32,000 bases of DNA from Acaryochloris marina MBIC11017 (GCF_000018105.1 NC_009931.1:140729-172728), one strand, 5' to 3'; shown: positions 1,401-7,981, numbered from the stretch's first letter. Numbers and translations: made by a program. The notes: a model not told the origin generated them from the letters alone.

Positions 1401-4400
1401 TCACCGACGAGGAGATCGCCGTTGATGCTGTTGCTGCTCCTGGGTAATCTCATTCGCCAACTGCCCCAGATCCTCAAATTTGGCTTGCACCTCTGGGTTG
1501 TCAGACATCCGTAAGATCTGGCCCACCTTGACTTCCAGAATCACCTGACCCGTGTGCTTATCCGTGATGCTGGTATAGCCTCTGCCTGACCTGAGCCGCC
1601 AGTTGTCCCCTTCAGAAACGTAGTCGCCCCCTTGAGCCTCTTCTTGGCCGTAAGCGTGAGTAATCACTCTCACCGCAGCACAGGTTTGACTTGCGAGGCT
1701 GTTCCGTTGATTCTCAACCTCCTGATCTATTGGCTGAGTTGTTTTCTGGAATTCAGAAAGCGTCTGAGCCTGGGCCGTCACATGCAGGAGATGGCCTGCT
1801 CGATACCTCAGCAAAACTCGATTTGACTCTTTCTCCCTAATCATCGTGGTTAGTGGCCCGTGGGTCATAACCCAGGATGGGGTGAAGTAAACCCTGACTC
1901 GTCCATGCTGAGAGCCATGTTTTTGAGCCATCGCTTGGACAATAGGCACCATTGCCATACCAACCTCGGTCTTATGCTTTTGAAGCTCAAGCGCTTTCTC
2001 CATTAGGTATTCGCGCTCATAGATGTGCTTAGATCCAGCCTCAATAAACCGATACCCATCTTCAAGTTCTCCTCGACGGCTAGCCTCCATGAACACCTCT
2101 AGATCCATCCGCTCTGGGGCAAGATCCCCATCTCGACGCTGAACGAACTCCACCAGCTTGCGATAACGGTATTGATAATGTTTGAGGGCAATTTCTTCAA
2201 ACGGTCTGGTCCTTGAAATCGCCAGCTCTAATTGCTTCGGACCCGCCCCCACAATCAGATCATCAACGCCTTTATGTTGGTTATCCCATTTAGAAGCGGA
2301 TACCGAACAGCCTTCTTTGACCAACAGTTCACCCGCTCTCACTAAATCCTGACGGACATTCACGATGGTTAAAGGCTTAGTTTCTTGGTCATATAGGAAA
2401 TTGAAGTGACGACCGGGAACAGCGAAGACAGCCAAACCAGGATGGAGTTGTCTTATAGGAAGTTTTTTCTTATTGTCATCATTGGCCCGGTATCCACCAT
2501 TCACACCCGGCAGACCAATCGTGACATGGCCTTGAGAGTTCACCGCTAGTGTCTTCTTGCCACCCTCCGTAATATTGATGGGAATCTGGGGATTGTCCTT
2601 GACCACTGACCAAAAATGCTTCCCTGGCCTGGGTGTGATGCCGTACTGGTCATAGATCGTTTGGGCTAACCACTCAGGGACATGAGTTAAGAAAATCTCT
2701 CGGCTGACATCCGCTGGATGCTCATACTTTTGCGGTCTGTTCCTGCGGTAATCCATGCGAGGATGATCGGGTTTGAGGCTTCCCCAAAGGGATTCCGTGG
2801 GTTCTGGGTCATCCAATGAACTAGCGAGAACCCCCGCTTTAATCCAGAACCCCCCATCAGGAACATCCCTTAGCTTGGCAAACTCCTCAGAAATCTCTTT
2901 AACGACAACCTGCCCTGCGCCCATATCCTCAATCTTCGTGGACAACAACCGTTCCAAGATTTCTTGTCCCGCGATGGTTTCACAGTTCAACTCAGCGAGA
3001 TCTGGGTGAATACCACTGCCTGCTAGCAGCTCCTGCCAATGCCCCTCAGCAATGGGGAAGGATGCCTCCATGAGTTTTTTGGGGTTTGTTTCTGGAGTCC
3101 AGAACACCTTAATGAATTTGGGCTTAGGTGTGATGTTGATCCCCTTCCCTTGTAATCGTTCAGCTAGGGTCTTCAATTCCTCCGTGATCGGTCCCTCAGC
3201 CACGGCTCCAACCTCCCGCATGTCCCTCACCGTCTGCCCCAACTCCTGCATCTCTAGGGTTTGGCCAATCATCTGCTGGACTTGCTTCACGGCCTCGTCA
3301 ACCCCCTCTAAATGTTGGGTGATGGCAGCCTCAGCCCGCCGCTGGGCGATGGCCTCAGCAAGATTCTTCATCCCTTCATACTCGTAGATAGAGGGCTGTG
3401 ACTGTAGCTGTTCTATGGAAGTCGCAAGTTCAGCTAGGGAAGCTTCTAGTCCACTATTGAGTAAGGTTTTCTCTGCATTAATGTCGTGAATCGTCCCCGC
3501 TAGTTTAGCCATGCCCGCATAGTCCGCTTGATTCACCTGAGCCACTTGCTGAGTTAAGCGATCCAGTTTGTCCAGCAGTCCCAGTTGATCCAAAGCTTGC
3601 ATGTCTTGGTGGGTTTGCCATGTCTGAGCCAACTGACCCATCCCTTGATATTGATAGGGCTGAATGGGGAGTTGCTCTAGGGCTTCCGTTAACTGAGCAA
3701 GAGATTCGTATATCTCTCTCTGGGCCTGTACCGTCTGAATCTTCTCGGCTAAGGCACCCATAGACGGATAGATAGGAGAGTTCAGGCGTTCGACCTGTTG
3801 CTGGATCTGCTCCAGAACACCGCTCTCACTCAGCGCCTGGATGTTCTGATGTTGAGTGATGGTTTTGGCTAATCCAGCCATGCCTTGGTACTGGTGACCC
3901 TGGAGCTGCTGAATTGTCTCCGCTATCGGCGCAAGGGCATTCACGAGCTGCTGTTGGGATTGCCATTCTCGGATTGAGCGAACCAGCCTTTGCATTTGGG
4001 GGTAGAGAACGGGTTGAGCCTCTGCCCGTTCCAAGGCTGCGTCGAGGTGTTCTACGGCATCTGGTTGGTCGGCCTCCACCTCAGCGATTGCATCCGTTAG
4101 CCCTCGACTCGCCTGCCATTCCTGCAGGCCCGCATCCATCGCCCGGATCTGCTCTCGGTAGGTAACCTGTTCCACTGCCTCATCAATCTGGTCAAGGACG
4201 TACTGAATCTGCGTGAGATGTTCCGTGAGGTCTTGTTGTTCTTGCCGTTGGGTGATCGATGCCGCGAGGTTACCCATGTCATAGGTCGGGGGCTGGGGTT
4301 CCTCCATGCCTTCGGATAGCTGGTTAACTGCCTGATCCAATCCACTCGCTACGATCAGCTGAGCATTTTGATACGCGGTCCAGGATCGGGCTAATCCTGC

Positions 4401-7400
4401 GAGGGCGTCTCCGAGCTGGGAGCGCTCTTGCCGTTGGTGGGCATCACTGAAGTCAAGAGACCGCTGTTCTGGAGTTGTTGTTTGATGGACTTGATCTCCT
4501 CTGCCGCCGTCTCCACTCCCGCGTTCAGTTGCAGGTAAGTCATACCGGAGAAGTTCATCTTCTGGGTCAGATCCTCCATTGCTTTCGTTAATTTGGCGAT
4601 GGATTCCGCCATCTTCTCCGACTTCTGGGCGTCCAAGGCGTCTTGGAGCTGTTCGATGAAGTGCTGGAGTTCGCCCCTGACGAGATGGGGTAACGTCCCC
4701 AACTCCTGGTTGACGCGGAGGTTCAATGTATCGATTTTCTCCTCCACTCCTTGAACGGACTGACTGAGAATTTCCATCACCGTGGCTTGGGTTTGCTGTG
4801 CGTCCAGGATAGTCTTCTGGTGCTCCAGAATCGTGTCCAATTTGGCTTCCAGATTGCTCATGATAATCCTTTAATAATTCAGTGGCATTGTCTTGAGCGA
4901 TACTTTCACTGACTCGCTCATCTAGTTTTTTGAAACTCTGGCAATAGATAACAATCTCATGGGATTGCCGTGAAATCTTGACGTAGAAAGGCTCTTTAGA
5001 GGAGGTGGGATCATTGGTGCTGCTGATGACCACCCGCTTGCGACTTTGCCCTTGGGCACGGTGGGCCGTATGCACCAGCGCATAGTCCAGGCAAACGGGA
5101 TGATCGAGGGAGATAGTGCGGTGCTGGCCCTCCTCATCTATGACATGCAGGGTGCTGCCCTCGATGGCTACTACCTTGACCTCATCTCCGTTAGACCATT
5201 TCTGCTCCTTGTTGTTATGGGTCCAGCGCAGATCATCCCCCACGGCGACATTTAGATTTTGAACCTCATAGACCTCCTTATGCTTGTACTTGCTGGGATT
5301 GAAGTGATAGAGCCGCCCCCCTGAACTGCTAACAAGCAGCTCATCTCCTAACCTACGCTCCACCCGGTAAAGCTTGTCTTTCTGAAGGGGCGTACTGCGA
5401 TAGTTCTTCTTCTGAAGCTGGATATAATCCCCCACTTGGTAGAACTGAACCAGCCGTTTTTGCTCAATCGTCAGATGGCGACTGGCCAGTTGCTGGATAT
5501 GGTGATCCTCTTCCCCCAACGTCCCCTCTGCCTTTAGGCCCTGACGGAGTAAGGACATGATCGCTAGTCTTTCCTTGTTCGTGCCCGTGACGAGTAGCGT
5601 CTCGGCCCGTTCTTCTGGGCTGAGCTGAAGATAGTAGTCAGCAAAGGTTTGCTGTCGAATATCTTCGTCTTTGATTTCTTGGATATAGCCATGCTCTTTT
5701 AAGAGGCTGACGGCATTTAGCCCCTGACCTTTGGCAATGAGAGAGACGGCCCGCTTTTGCACGGTGTTGCGCTGGCGCACAATCTGGCTGATATGGAAGG
5801 TGGTTGCCCCCGCCCGAATCAGAGACCGCATGGGGGAACCCGCTGTAATACTGGGGTTTTGCTTGGTATCTCCCACAAATAGAACACGGGCATTCGCTGC
5901 CCTGGCCCGACCCAGCAATTCCAACATTTGCTGTGACCCAATCATCCCTGCCTCGTCTACAATCCACAGTTGATGGGGGGCTAGACTCGGCTTGCTCACT
6001 AAGAGCTTGGCGACGGTATTGGTTTTGATACCCAGTTCCTTGCCTAACACCTTAGAGGCTTTAGTCGTGGGAGCATACCCTTGGATATCGAGGTTGAGAT
6101 GAGTCAGAACCTGTTTCAATTGGCCCAACGTCCGGGTTTTCCCCACCCCCGCTAACCCATGCCAGAGGATAAATTGATCTGAGTGGGCCAAGGTTTTAGC
6201 CACTGCTTCTAGTTGCCCGACATTTAAACCGCTCTCTTTGAGCAGCTCCCTAACGCTGTACTCGGACATTAAGGGGGTTTGGGTTTGCCGTCCTAAGTCC
6301 CAGCTCTGATGAATGGCTGCTTCTCGCTCCAATGCCGCTACGGTGGTGAATCGTTCCGTATTGTTCACCTGATCTCGCAGGGTCAGCAATTCCTCACAGG
6401 CTGACATGGCTTGGCTTATATCCTCGAAGCGGAACTGGCGGATATTGCCGAAAACAAACTGCTCAATCTGCTCACGGGTAAAGGTAATGGAGCGTTCACT
6501 AAGATGGTTGATGGCACTGTGCAACGCCGTCGTCACCTGATCCGGTCGATACTCAAATTGAGGACTGAGATCCGGTTGAGGCATCCGGTAGTCTAAGGTT
6601 TGGGCCGCTTGCTGCCAGACGGCTTGTAAATCTGTGAGCTTCTGGCCCGGTTCCTTGGCTTTACGGCTTTTAAGGCAAGCGGTTTGCTTGTTTGCGGTGG
6701 TTGCTTCTAAACCATCTTTTTCGAGCTGTTTAAAGATCTGCTGAGAGCGCTTGGAGAAGGTTTCAACCTGCTCACGAGTAATTCCCTCAATCTCAAACGC
6801 ATCCTTCGTGGCATAGATCTTGTATCCCAAGTTCTGAATATTCTCAGCCAGGTATTGCCGATAGATTTGCCCCAAGCATTCCTGCATATACATCAGGTCA
6901 TTCTTACGGCTGCGCCAGGTGCCGTCTGGCATCTGGGTCGTATTCATCACTAGGGCATGGGTATGCACCTGTGGATCATTGGCCCTGGAGGTGTGGTGGT
7001 TAATCAGGGCAATCACCAGATTCTTCGTATTGAGGGTATGGCGAACCCCCCCGATCATCACCCGTGTTTGTCCATATCGCTCTTGGACGATATCCAGGGT
7101 GCGCTTGACGGCTTGCAGGTGGGCATCAAATAGGCGATAGTCACAGCCAATATGCAGGACCATTGAGGCACTTTTAGGCATGGAAAAAGTGAAGTCATCC
7201 CCCACCCGTTCCTTGTGCTTTTCGTTCTTGGGAAAACCCCTCAGCCTCTCCCCTTCCAGGTTGTAGCCATAGAAAACTTTTTTAAAGTCAGCCCGGTGGA
7301 CATTTCCCTGTAAACCGAGGGCATAAGCGCCATAGCCATACCATTGAGCGCGGACGAGCTTTCGTAGAGCGGCTGCTTTGGATTCAGCCTCACTGACCGT

Positions 7401-7529
7401 TTTCCCCTTCCCCTTCTTCTGTACCGACTTGGAAACATCAGGGCTGTAGTAATCCACCAGCCCCTCATCCTGGAGGTAATAGTCTTCTTTTTCTTTGCAG
7501 CCCGTCTGCACGGGCACAATCTTCAGCAT
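1401..7529 (-). CDS. Conjugative MOBF (TrwC/TraI-type) relaxase and RecD-like helicase, fused to a helical repeat region and a C-terminal DUF3854/Toprim-like domain (2042 aa)
   Basis: N-terminal YY pairs are present. The 3-His relaxase motif HHTSRANDPQVHTHALV lies at 6957-6998. Helicase Walker A GLAGVGKT lies at 6135-6158 and Walker B WIVDEAGM near 5945-5968. The Toprim-like motif ITEGGKKT lies at 2550-2573, followed by YDQE and KGVDDLIV. Confidence 0.9.
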   Translation of the reverse strand: MLKIVPVQTGCKEKEDYYLQDEGLVDYYSPDVSKSVQKKGKGKTVSEAESKAAALRKLVRAQWYGYGAYALGLQGNVHRADFKKVFYGYNLEGERLRGFPKNEKHKERVGDDFTFSMPKSASMVLHIGCDYRLFDAHLQAVKRTLDIVQERYGQTRVMIGGVRHTLNTKNLVIALINHHTSRANDPQVHTHALVMNTTQMPDGTWRSRKNDLMYMQECLGQIYRQYLAENIQNLGYKIYATKDAFEIEGITREQVETFSKRSQQIFKQLEKDGLEATTANKQTACLKSRKAKEPGQKLTDLQAVWQQAAQTLDYRMPQPDLSPQFEYRPDQVTTALHSAINHLSERSITFTREQIEQFVFGNIRQFRFEDISQAMSACEELLTLRDQVNNTERFTTVAALEREAAIHQSWDLGRQTQTPLMSEYSVRELLKESGLNVGQLEAVAKTLAHSDQFILWHGLAGVGKTRTLGQLKQVLTHLNLDIQGYAPTTKASKVLGKELGIKTNTVAKLLVSKPSLAPHQLWIVDEAGMIGSQQMLELLGRARAANARVLFVGDTKQNPSITAGSPMRSLIRAGATTFHISQIVRQRNTVQKRAVSLIAKGQGLNAVSLLKEHGYIQEIKDEDIRQQTFADYYLQLSPEERAETLLVTGTNKERLAIMSLLRQGLKAEGTLGEEDHHIQQLASRHLTIEQKRLVQFYQVGDYIQLQKKNYRSTPLQKDKLYRVERRLGDELLVSSSGGRLYHFNPSKYKHKEVYEVQNLNVAVGDDLRWTHNNKEQKWSNGDEVKVVAIEGSTLHVIDEEGQHRTISLDHPVCLDYALVHTAHRAQGQSRKRVVISSTNDPTSSKEPFYVKISRQSHEIVIYCQSFKKLDERVSESIAQDNATELLKDYHEQSGSQIGHDSGAPEDYPGRTANPSHGDGNSQSVRSRSGGENRYIEPPRQPGVGDVTPSRQGRTPALHRTAPRRLGRPEVGEDGGIHRQINESNGGSDPEDELLRYDLPATERGSGDGGRGDQVHQTTTPEQRSLDFSDAHQRQERSQLGDALAGLARSWTAYQNAQLIVASGLDQAVNQLSEGMEEPQPPTYDMGNLAASITQRQEQQDLTEHLTQIQYVLDQIDEAVEQVTYREQIRAMDAGLQEWQASRGLTDAIAEVEADQPDAVEHLDAALERAEAQPVLYPQMQRLVRSIREWQSQQQLVNALAPIAETIQQLQGHQYQGMAGLAKTITQHQNIQALSESGVLEQIQQQVERLNSPIYPSMGALAEKIQTVQAQREIYESLAQLTEALEQLPIQPYQYQGMGQLAQTWQTHQDMQALDQLGLLDKLDRLTQQVAQVNQADYAGMAKLAGTIHDINAEKTLLNSGLEASLAELATSIEQLQSQPSIYEYEGMKNLAEAIAQRRAEAAITQHLEGVDEAVKQVQQMIGQTLEMQELGQTVRDMREVGAVAEGPITEELKTLAERLQGKGINITPKPKFIKVFWTPETNPKKLMEASFPIAEGHWQELLAGSGIHPDLAELNCETIAGQEILERLLSTKIEDMGAGQVVVKEISEEFAKLRDVPDGGFWIKAGVLASSLDDPEPTESLWGSLKPDHPRMDYRRNRPQKYEHPADVSREIFLTHVPEWLAQTIYDQYGITPRPGKHFWSVVKDNPQIPINITEGGKKTLAVNSQGHVTIGLPGVNGGYRANDDNKKKLPIRQLHPGLAVFAVPGRHFNFLYDQETKPLTIVNVRQDLVRAGELLVKEGCSVSASKWDNQHKGVDDLIVGAGPKQLELAISRTRPFEEIALKHYQYRYRKLVEFVQRRDGDLAPERMDLEVFMEASRRGELEDGYRFIEAGSKHIYEREYLMEKALELQKHKTEVGMAMVPIVQAMAQKHGSQHGRVRVYFTPSWVMTHGPLTTMIREKESNRVLLRYRAGHLLHVTAQAQTLSEFQKTTQPIDQEVENQRNSLASQTCAAVRVITHAYGQEEAQGGDYVSEGDNWRLRSGRGYTSITDKHTGQVILEVKVGQILRMSDNPEVQAKFEDLGQLANEITQEQQQHQRRSPRR
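3150..4412 (-). repeat. About 10 degenerate 38-48 aa helical repeats (Y-x-G-M-x-x-L-A-x-x-I/W...) inside the large ORF
   Basis: Anchors recur: LAGLARSW, YDMGNLAAS, RAMDAGLQEW, YPQMQRLVRS, YQGMAGLAKT, YPSMGALAEK, YQGMGQLAQT, YAGMAKLAGT, YEGMKNLAEA, LEMQELGQT. They fall at residues ~1043, 1085, 1131, 1179, 1217, 1257, 1297, 1340, 1387 and 1427. Confidence 0.6.
4391..4861 (-). CDS. Embedded 156-codon ORF in the +1 frame of the relaxase ORF; predicted coiled-coil protein
   Basis: The ATG is preceded by AAGGA at 7 nt (TTAAAGGATTATCATG). The helical sequence is free of low complexity, with G/C/A-ending codons like the rest of the gene. Over the same bases, frame 0 reads as R/G/P/S-rich text. Confidence 0.4.
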   Translation of the reverse strand: MSNLEAKLDTILEHQKTILDAQQTQATVMEILSQSVQGVEEKIDTLNLRVNQELGTLPHLVRGELQHFIEQLQDALDAQKSEKMAESIAKLTKAMEDLTQKMNFSGMTYLQLNAGVETAAEEIKSIKQQLQNSGLLTSVMPTNGKSAPSSETPSQD

Positions 7530-7538
7530 CGGAAAAGG

Positions 7539-7844
7539 CTACAGAAAGCGAACGAAAAGCCAGGTTGCCCGGCACCAAGCATGGATCAGGCGTTGTAGCA
7601 GATTGGGATATCTCCCCCGTTGATTCTGTTCCGTGACGGTCTTTGCTCCACCTAGCCACTGGTGAATAAAGGTATGGGAGCCAGGGGACAGGGGGAGCAA
7701 ATCCAACCAGATCCACTCATGGCCATAGCGTTTGTAATTCGTGTGATGGACATGGGCATAGCCATAGGTTCTGACCCAAGGACGCAGGGCACAGCGGTAC
7801 TTCCAAGCAGCTAGGGTGCGTTTGCGAAGTTTGGCGTCCGTCAT
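7539..7844 (-). CDS. Hypothetical 101-aa protein with a degenerate HNH-like His motif, directly upstream of the relaxase
   Basis: The ATG at 7844 overlaps the TGA of the upstream micro-ORF (TGATGA coupling). The motif is YAHVHHTNYKRYGHEW...SHTFIH. The stop is 9 nt before the relaxase ATG. Confidence 0.5.
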   Translation of the reverse strand: MTDAKLRKRTLAAWKYRCALRPWVRTYGYAHVHHTNYKRYGHEWIWLDLLPLSPGSHTFIHQWLGGAKTVTEQNQRGRYPNLLQRLIHAWCRATWLFVRFL

Positions 7845-7981
7845 CACCACATGGATCTAAAAAACATCGCCGTAATGACGGTCGTTAATGTCCCCGCCCA
7901 TCCAATGAGGCGCATCAGTGGTGTGTATCGACATACCAAATAAAAAATAACTAGACCGACGAAGATGTCAAAGTGACTCAT
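7844..7981 (-). CDS. 45-aa hydrophobic micro-protein, first gene of the relaxase operon
   Basis: Hand translation gives MSHFDIFVGLVIFYLVCRYTPLMRLIGWAGTLTTVITAMFFRSMW. A strong SD (AAGGAG) sits 7 nt upstream of the ATG at 7981. It falls below the length cut-off of the ORF track. Confidence 0.4.
   Translation of the reverse strand: MSHFDIFVGLVIFYLVCRYTPLMRLIGWAGTLTTVITAMFFRSMW

Follow-up and report, generated by a model that had tools for sequence, protein, structure and literature searches.

A conserved open reading frame nested out of frame in the mobF relaxase gene of Acaryochloris marina MBIC11017

Small genes lying inside relaxase genes have been described in RP4/RK2 and in RSF1010/R1162. 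In RP4/RK2, traH is located inside traI in another frame, and TraH is reported to stabilise the TraJ-TraI relaxosome at oriT (PMC7314908, citing Pansegrau 1990). In RSF1010/R1162, mobB is located inside mobA/repB and is translated in another frame (PMC2200642). Here we describe a 32,000-nucleotide (nt) stretch of Acaryochloris marina MBIC11017 (NC_009931.1:140729-172728; hereafter the window, from whose first letter all positions are counted), in which a complete open reading frame (ORF) of 156 codons is nested in the +1 frame of mobF, the gene of a 2042-amino acid (aa) relaxase. As in traH/traI, the small predicted protein is encoded wholly within the relaxase gene in a different frame, and as in mobB/mobA, where mobB is an accessory mobilisation gene, an out-of-frame gene lies inside a multidomain relaxase fusion gene. 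The arrangement is best explained by a genuine nested coding gene that is under selection, with a host frame that is read through, and we give this explanation a probability of about 0.85. A genuine gene overprinted on the relaxase linker was among the explanations listed in an initial annotation of the window, and it is supported by conservation in the same frame, codon-phase selection and an open host frame.

The nested reading frame and its homologues

The nested ORF appears in the ORF list at 4391-4861 (minus strand; 156 codons plus TAG), within mobF (1401-7529, minus strand, taken as frame 0), on the same strand and in the +1 frame. A TAA in the +1 frame (4871-4873, minus) stands four codons ahead of the ATG (4861-4859), and the junction reads TAA-AGG-ATT-ATC-ATG. 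The Shine-Dalgarno (SD)-like sequence AAGGA (4867-4871, minus) is 5 nt upstream of the ATG. The nested stop (4393-4391) falls inside the first unit, LGDALAGLARSW (4380-4415), of a repeat array encoded by frame 0, and the +2 frame contains 10 stops across the overlap. Scored on the codon usage of mobF itself, the +1 frame reaches 0.33, compared with 0.30 +/- 0.08 for native frame-0 windows; frame 0 in the overlap scores -0.11, lower than every native window, and ordinary off-frames score about -0.6. The translation, the TAA and ATG, the gene-like codon endings and the end of the ORF at the point where frame 0 turns repeat-like had all been reported in the initial annotation and agree with our reading; the distance between AAGGA and ATG, given there as 7 nt, is corrected here. 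The length of the ORF alone is unexceptional, as these genes contain other alternative-frame runs of 126-137 codons. Conservation in the same frame across many loci is what sets the ORF apart from chance.

Homologous nested ORFs were found in more than 50 Acaryochloris and Nostoc-type loci. In four other Acaryochloris plasmids, tblastn located the homologue at a +1 offset from the annotated mobF coding sequence (CDS), with a stop and GAGGAAACCT-ATG upstream in each and with a third frame full of stops. Six metagenomic contigs (L001, L007, L010, L014, L015 and L016) share the nested layout; in these, the helicase end (...NPLELI.E.Y) is in the -1 frame relative to the small ORF, and this frame is open throughout, into the repeats. 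A weak profile match led to Nostoc, where tblastn detected the homologue in 17 plasmids. It occupies the +1 frame of mobF in all five intact Nostoc genes whose frame was examined, with a length of 110-134 codons, and is located after the DUF3854 domain, at about aa 1280-1333, downstream of AGGA(G)-N6-8-ATG and directly followed by a long repeat array. According to hhalign, the Acaryochloris and Nostoc types are one family (probability 96 %, E = 2e-9). Scanning one genome per species with the Nostoc-type alignment added 33 loci in Nostoc, Nodularia, Chlorogloea and Chroococcidiopsidaceae; the host frame runs without a stop over the full length of the nested ORF in 31 of these, within ORFs of about 300 to 2200 codons, some of which are cut by contig ends.

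The reach of the family was also delimited by several searches. Scans of genome and metagenome contigs with the Acaryochloris-type alignment returned no matches, and tblastn of both nested-protein types against 72,556 plasmids (E <= 1e-3) retrieved only Acaryochloris (5) or Nostoc (17) records. Among 1.8 billion representative proteins, small homologues had been called only on short or broken contigs, among them the six named above. The Prokaryotic Genome Annotation Pipeline (PGAP) annotates no nested gene in any intact plasmid locus examined, and no description of a nested gene in cyanobacterial relaxases was found in the searchable literature. Between homologues, amino-acid identity is 24-37 % at near-saturated nucleotide divergence. 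The differences in length are whole codons, and the upstream and downstream MobF domains remain in one frame despite insertions and deletions (indels). The reverse pattern, a frame-0 linker conserved as protein with a +1 frame full of stops, had also been considered in the initial annotation; the opposite was found, since the +1 protein is conserved and stop-free in all homologues.

Substitutions in the nested frame follow its codon phase. Differences at nested codon positions 1, 2 and 3 number 42, 20 and 71 between the window and L001 (chi-square p = 4e-7) and 32, 20 and 51 between L002 and L004, giving the order third > first > second position. Nested-frame amino-acid identity exceeds frame-0 identity in 51 of 51 pairs. 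When L002 and L004 were compared in sliding fashion along mobF, the third positions of frame 0 were the most variable (0.2-0.6) everywhere but in the overlap, where they drop to 0.00-0.12 and the first positions become the most variable. Likewise, in the window's own lineage the differences at the three frame-0 positions are 71, 42 and 20 in the overlap vs 83, 47 and 126 in the adjacent repeats. Because the substitutions follow the codon phase, the identity exceeds that of frame 0 and a stand-alone homologue exists, the nested frame can be regarded, on sequence comparison, as a protein-coding gene under purifying selection at the amino-acid level.

The start region is conserved in part. In most of the homologous loci shown, an equivalent +1-frame stop lies 3-5 codons ahead of the ATG, and the succession of +1-frame stop, AGGA-type motif and ATG is seen at most junctions. 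The more specific motif AGGA(G)nAAACCnATG is present at many, not all, Acaryochloris-type and Nostoc-type junctions; it is absent from those of L015, L059 and L056, and many Nostoc loci read CAGGTACAAACCC. As a separate observation, the motif, in the form (T)AGGA(G)nAAACCnATG (4859-4873 in the window), occurs at many junctions of both types despite the different positions of the module in mobF, which suggests a move of the module in one piece, initiation region included. A search for an internal promoter and terminator gave one promoter-like match at chance level and no terminator.

The host frame across the overlap

In frame 0, the overlap encodes a linker of MobF (aa 890-1037; 4419-4862, minus) that is hydrophilic, rich in G, R, S, P and D, stop-free and less conserved than the nested frame. 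The initial annotation had described this text as R/G/P/S-rich with atypical A-ending codons, and the figures bear this out: G makes up 15 %, R 11 %, S 9.5 % and P 8 % of the residues, K and M are absent, and the third positions are A in 0.39 and G in 0.09 of codons vs 0.195 and 0.318 in the rest of mobF. It had further been stated that frame 0 has no ATG, GTG or TTG between 4862 and 4307; this holds for 4900 to 4341, where none occurs, and fails at 4340, where there is a TTG.

The openness of frame 0 was evaluated by shuffling the synonymous codons of the nested ORF, with its protein and codon set held, and counting the stops created in the relaxase frame. From 1 to 5.7 stops are expected in the shuffled sequences, and none is observed in any intact nested locus. 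For the window the probability of an open frame is 0.011, and it falls within 0.0002-0.046 for 13 of the 14 loci. Only T-ending nested codons can create stops in the relaxase frame, and such codons account for 0.10 of the nested ORF vs 0.23 in the rest of mobF. Across the nested ORFs of the loci examined, 6-19 stops occur in the third frame. A natural control is available in the free-standing homologue on L011-L013, through which no ORF runs: the corresponding frame contains 6 stops (6.8 expected), and 18 % of its codons are T-ending. The converse shuffle, in which frame-0 synonymous codons were permuted and the +1 frame was inspected, gave P = 0.48-1.0, and it is uninformative, as +1 stops cannot arise from a linker so poor in hydrophobic residues. 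The one constraint that is clear for the linker in frame 0 is that stops are avoided.

On these grounds, we infer that the nested gene is initiated independently and that MobF is read through at full length. The nested gene would start at its own AAGGA-N5-ATG and give a protein of about 17 kDa, with two predicted long helices and a disordered tail, while in MobF the same DNA would be translated as the hydrophilic linker that joins the helicase to the helical repeat array; 4391-4861 (minus) would thus be translated in two frames. Of the two frames, the nested one seems to be the older and that of the MobF linker the overprinted one, to judge from the codon usage, the structured vs low-complexity products and the free-standing copy. 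A fusion could have arisen from an operon by stop loss or from the insertion of a cassette. An ancestral three-gene operon fused by stop loss had been offered in the initial annotation as an explanation of the locus; as an evolutionary origin it is possible, and as a description of the present state it does not serve.

Several points weigh against this interpretation. At L016 the shuffle test is not individually significant (P = 0.31), and the P values are not independent because the loci are related. Two of the 33 additional genome loci (L037 and L060, both metagenome-assembled genomes, MAGs) have an interrupted host frame. The nested proteins from the window, L022 and L002 are all missing from a 15-billion-protein collection, so no gene caller predicted those three. 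The SD-like motif also codes for conserved MobF residues (..G-E/Q-T/N-Y/H..), and therefore its conservation is not assignable to initiation alone; many cyanobacterial genes, moreover, work without an SD sequence. The proposed order of the frames is drawn from codon usage and the stand-alone copy.

Alternative explanations

The locus might instead reflect two compensating frameshifts, by mutation or sequencing error, such that the helical +1 peptide truly belongs to MobF and two indels enclose an artefactual frame-0 text. The non-native look of the frame-0 linker would fit this, as would the single indel near the 3' end in L001 and the chimeric proteins that indel-ridden contigs yield, namely P0005 (L008, '2x' coverage) and P0011 (L009, mobF in many pieces). 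However, the complete plasmids examined, which come from two genera and different projects, share the two-frame layout, and so do the 31 of 33 genome loci. The ATG follows a +1-frame stop in most loci shown, frame 0 is open far more often than the shuffles allow, homologues differ in length by whole codons, and the helical segment is in frame with MobF in no clean locus. Compensating frameshifts, proposed in the initial annotation, are in effect ruled out by this recurrence in independently sequenced plasmids together with the open frame 0, and hardly any weight is left to them. Recoding, also proposed there, would involve a programmed +1 shift near 4865 and/or a -1 shift near 4400, giving MobF isoforms with the helical segment or a fusion of the nested product with the repeats and DUF3854. 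The SD-like element close to the frame junction is in its favour and recalls prfB and dnaX frameshifting, and the nested stop does coincide with the start of the repeat array. Against it, merely 9-15 nt separate the +1-frame stop from the ATG, so that the stop lies 3-5 codons ahead of a conserved SD-ATG; frame 0 is open over the whole gene, contains neither a stop nor an obvious hungry codon that could drive a shift, and is under selection to remain open; and conserved X XXY YYZ heptamers and homopolymers are lacking, the -1 slippery heptamer being absent from the nested frame in 12 of 13 loci, the single one (L025) not being conserved, and the junction being free of homopolymers. In addition, the C-terminal tail of the nested product varies between homologues and is disordered in the predicted structure, and the stand-alone homologue begins at the same Met. 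Recoding thus finds no support, and we consider it quite improbable.

A different possibility accepts the nested gene and denies the read-through: the helicase and the repeat-DUF3854 parts would be separate polypeptides, and the openness of frame 0 would be incidental. Frame-0 amino-acid conservation in the overlap is indeed below that of the nested frame, and the linker is dispensable in relatives. This possibility is nevertheless given little credence, in that no intact locus has a frame-0 stop where one to six are expected, a restart codon is lacking from 4900 to 4341, the domains on both sides keep one frame despite indels, and the stand-alone copy, free of the constraint, has accumulated 6 stops. 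Finally, the ORF might be a chance run, or its conservation might reflect a DNA or RNA element without coding function, for instance a structure or a binding site. Alternative-frame runs of 126-137 codons do arise by chance in these genes, and no known protein family matches the product. But the protein similarity outlasts nucleotide divergence that is nearly saturated (24-37 % amino-acid identity, with the profile E = 2e-9 between genera), the substitutions show the periodicity of codons in the nested frame, a free-standing gene copy exists and the third frame has 6-19 stops, all of which makes a non-coding origin extremely improbable. A selected nested gene with a host frame that is read through is accordingly the reading we retain.

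Relaxase context, possible role and relation to known nested genes

The host gene is a MOBF (TrwC/TraI-type) relaxase-helicase, with an N-terminal TrwC domain followed by a superfamily 1 (SF1) helicase. The TrwC relaxase domain spans aa 58-311 (6597-7358, minus; PF08751, E = 2e-69). The helicase part (4860-6227, minus) extends from AAA_30 (aa 435-620; PF13604, E = 2.5e-54) to a conserved end, ...EPFYVKISRQ...DNATELLKDYH, at aa 890, and the NCBIfam MobF model scores 251 bits against a cut-off of 100. With MobF aa 700-889, the C-terminal end of the helicase, as query, tblastn retrieved 1252 MobF/TraI plasmids. Behind the linker there are about 9-10 degenerate helical repeats of some 40-50 aa (Y-x-G-M-x-x-L-A-x-x-I...Q...L; aa 1038-1465; 3135-4418, minus), which begin where the nested ORF ends, and the C-terminal part of MobF carries DUF3854 (aa 1639-1765; 2235-2615, minus; PF12965, E = 2e-43). 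The array has no Pfam match, the C-terminal region of MobF has none in a sequence search of the PDB, and Tandem Repeats Finder detected no nucleotide-level repeats at 3000-5200, the array being repetitive at the protein level only. The initial annotation had suggested that segments of the +1 frame echo these repeats; a homology between the nested protein and the repeat units was dropped, as BLASTP gave only a weak match (E = 0.002, 22 % gaps) and profile-profile comparison a probability of 1 %.

In plasmid pREC2 of A. marina MBIC10699, the nested ORF is 100 % and the flanking 1.6 kb is 99.9 % identical to the window, and the host ORF is annotated as mobF (WP_041661475.1). Small ORFs flank mobF in the window on both sides (upstream 7539-7850, minus, 103 aa; downstream 811-1245, minus, 144 aa), and pREC2 carries both as hypothetical proteins (WP_012168220 and WP_012168218). 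A short ORF immediately upstream of mobF is seen again in other Acaryochloris and Nostoc loci, and a NACHT-domain gene lies downstream of mobF in pREC2.

Some homologous loci deviate in structure or annotation. In L021 (Nostoc sp. UHCC 0302 plasmid, NZ_CP151102, 3021-10372), mobF is annotated as two CDS, a 'MobF family relaxase' and a 1660-aa 'DUF3854 domain-containing protein'; the annotated split falls inside the helicase domain and therefore probably reflects a frameshift or a pseudogene. In L021 the array at the C-terminus comprises roughly eight to ten repeats of about 100 aa each. L027 (Nostoc sp. C057 plasmid p057_J, 1900-6400) is a decayed mobF with many short CDS (relaxase, AAA and DUF3854 fragments), in which tblastn still finds the nested-ORF homologue (E = 2e-13); the 'hypothetical protein' annotated at 5886-6323 is in a frame different from that match. 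On contig L014 (1-144), the helicase end upstream of the nested gene is reduced to its final residues (..SVQLNPLELLGENHG), and stops interrupt the frame further 5'; this may be a truncated or rearranged copy, the module without the relaxase-helicase. L052, from a MAG labelled 'uncultured Acetobacteraceae' (CAZZZY010000693), has a Nostoc-type mobF with a nested gene (48 % identity), and the contig is probably a cyanobacterial binning contaminant. In L008 (ENA ctg64492_2x) and L009 (JGI Ga0456421_11395), mobF is in two and in many pieces, respectively, which points to indels. The trans-frame chimeras called there, because mobF is split by indels, join the nested start to the frame-0 linker, repeats and DUF3854 (P0005) and the helicase end to the C-terminal half of the nested product (P0011); such chimeras could mislead homology searches.

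Wherever enough flanking sequence is available, a MobF-type relaxase gene with a helical repeat array either contains the small gene or stands next to it. The nested copies are immediately 5' of the array, an order seen in the inspected genes of the Nostoc type as well. The module occupies different sites: between the helicase and DUF3854 in Acaryochloris and after DUF3854 in Nostocales, with a third, free-standing form beside a helicase-repeat relaxase. The relaxase gene convergent to the free-standing copy (L011) runs from ...ENATDLVEPEHL straight into four near-identical YEGMD..LAQKI repeats of the same type as those of the window, and the free-standing homologue begins at the same Met as the nested copies. 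MobF has no nested ORF in pREC1, pREC3, pREC4 and pCC7120gamma. In the first three the array is missing too, because the helicase end runs almost directly into the DUF3854 region; in pCC7120gamma a low-complexity linker of about 100 aa stands between the helicase end and the DUF3854 region. Judged from these proteins and from the relaxase next to the free-standing copy, the MobF linker is dispensable.

We tentatively propose, at somewhat less than even odds, that the nested gene and the array are one unit that was built into mobF at two places, the linker being new coding sequence gained through read-through of an older small gene. If so, a large ORF would have extended across the older small gene, in the -1 frame of the latter, and the stops would have been removed afterwards. 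Such gene capture by read-through would run opposite to classical overprinting, and the small protein would serve the repeat array as a dedicated partner.

An AlphaFold2 model of the nested protein, built with 11 homologues, has long helices at residues 2-78 and 81-132 and a tail predicted as disordered (predicted local distance difference test, pLDDT, 73; predicted template modelling score, pTM, 0.35); the C-terminal tail also varies among homologues. Since the nested gene always accompanies repeat-bearing MobF relaxases, and given the precedents of traH/traI and mobB/mobA, its product may act with the relaxase as an accessory factor, a role for which we see an even chance. By the same analogy, the accessory factor would come from the same mRNA as the relaxase, and the nested protein would possibly bind the repeat array. 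Counting against a functional assignment, Foldseek gave no PDB hit at E < 1 (best PspA, E = 1.1); Pfam, NCBIfam, PHROG and PADLOC gave no family at cut-off or with a convincing score, only sub-threshold coiled-coil noise; and the role is argued from analogy and genomic surroundings only.

In bacteria, few long genes nested out of frame are backed by strong comparative evidence, and gene callers are blind to such genes. The present case has a natural control, the free-standing copy with its stops, and two independent insertion contexts. It adds a conserved, unannotated candidate component to the MOBF transfer machinery of the large Acaryochloris and Nostocales plasmids, which carry much of the accessory genome of these organisms. 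It also provides a testable example of a disordered linker made from the alternative frame of an existing gene. Mutations or deletions introduced into the mobF 'linker' would strike a second gene as well.

Compared with viral overprinted genes, the locus shows the same pairing of two long same-strand ORFs, one native and structured, the other hydrophilic, of low complexity and probably disordered, with stops avoided. In viruses, however, the small ORF usually arises de novo in an old gene, whereas here the polarity appears to be reversed and the disordered frame is that of the large host gene. The plasmid precedents differ in other respects. RP4 has a MOBP relaxase, in contrast to the MOBF relaxase with helicase of the window, and its TraH is described as acidic, whereas the predicted nested protein of the window is Q/E/L-rich and helical and its gene is tied to a repeat array. 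In RSF1010, mobB lies between the relaxase domain and the C-terminal primase domain and so also overprints an interdomain linker. The RSF1010 host protein is a MOBQ relaxase-primase of 709 aa vs the 2042-aa MOBF protein of the window, and RSF1010 also makes RepB' from an in-frame internal start, whereas no such start is evident in the window's mobF. Unlike either precedent, the module of the window family occurs at two positions and in a free-standing form. No homology to the TraH or MobB families emerged from tblastn of the 72,556 plasmids or from Pfam/NCBIfam, with no direct pairwise comparison with TraH or MobB. The nested gene therefore resembles the traH/traI and mobB/mobA kind and is a member of neither family. 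Taken with these systems, it suggests that a helper gene hidden in a relaxase linker is a recurrent solution.

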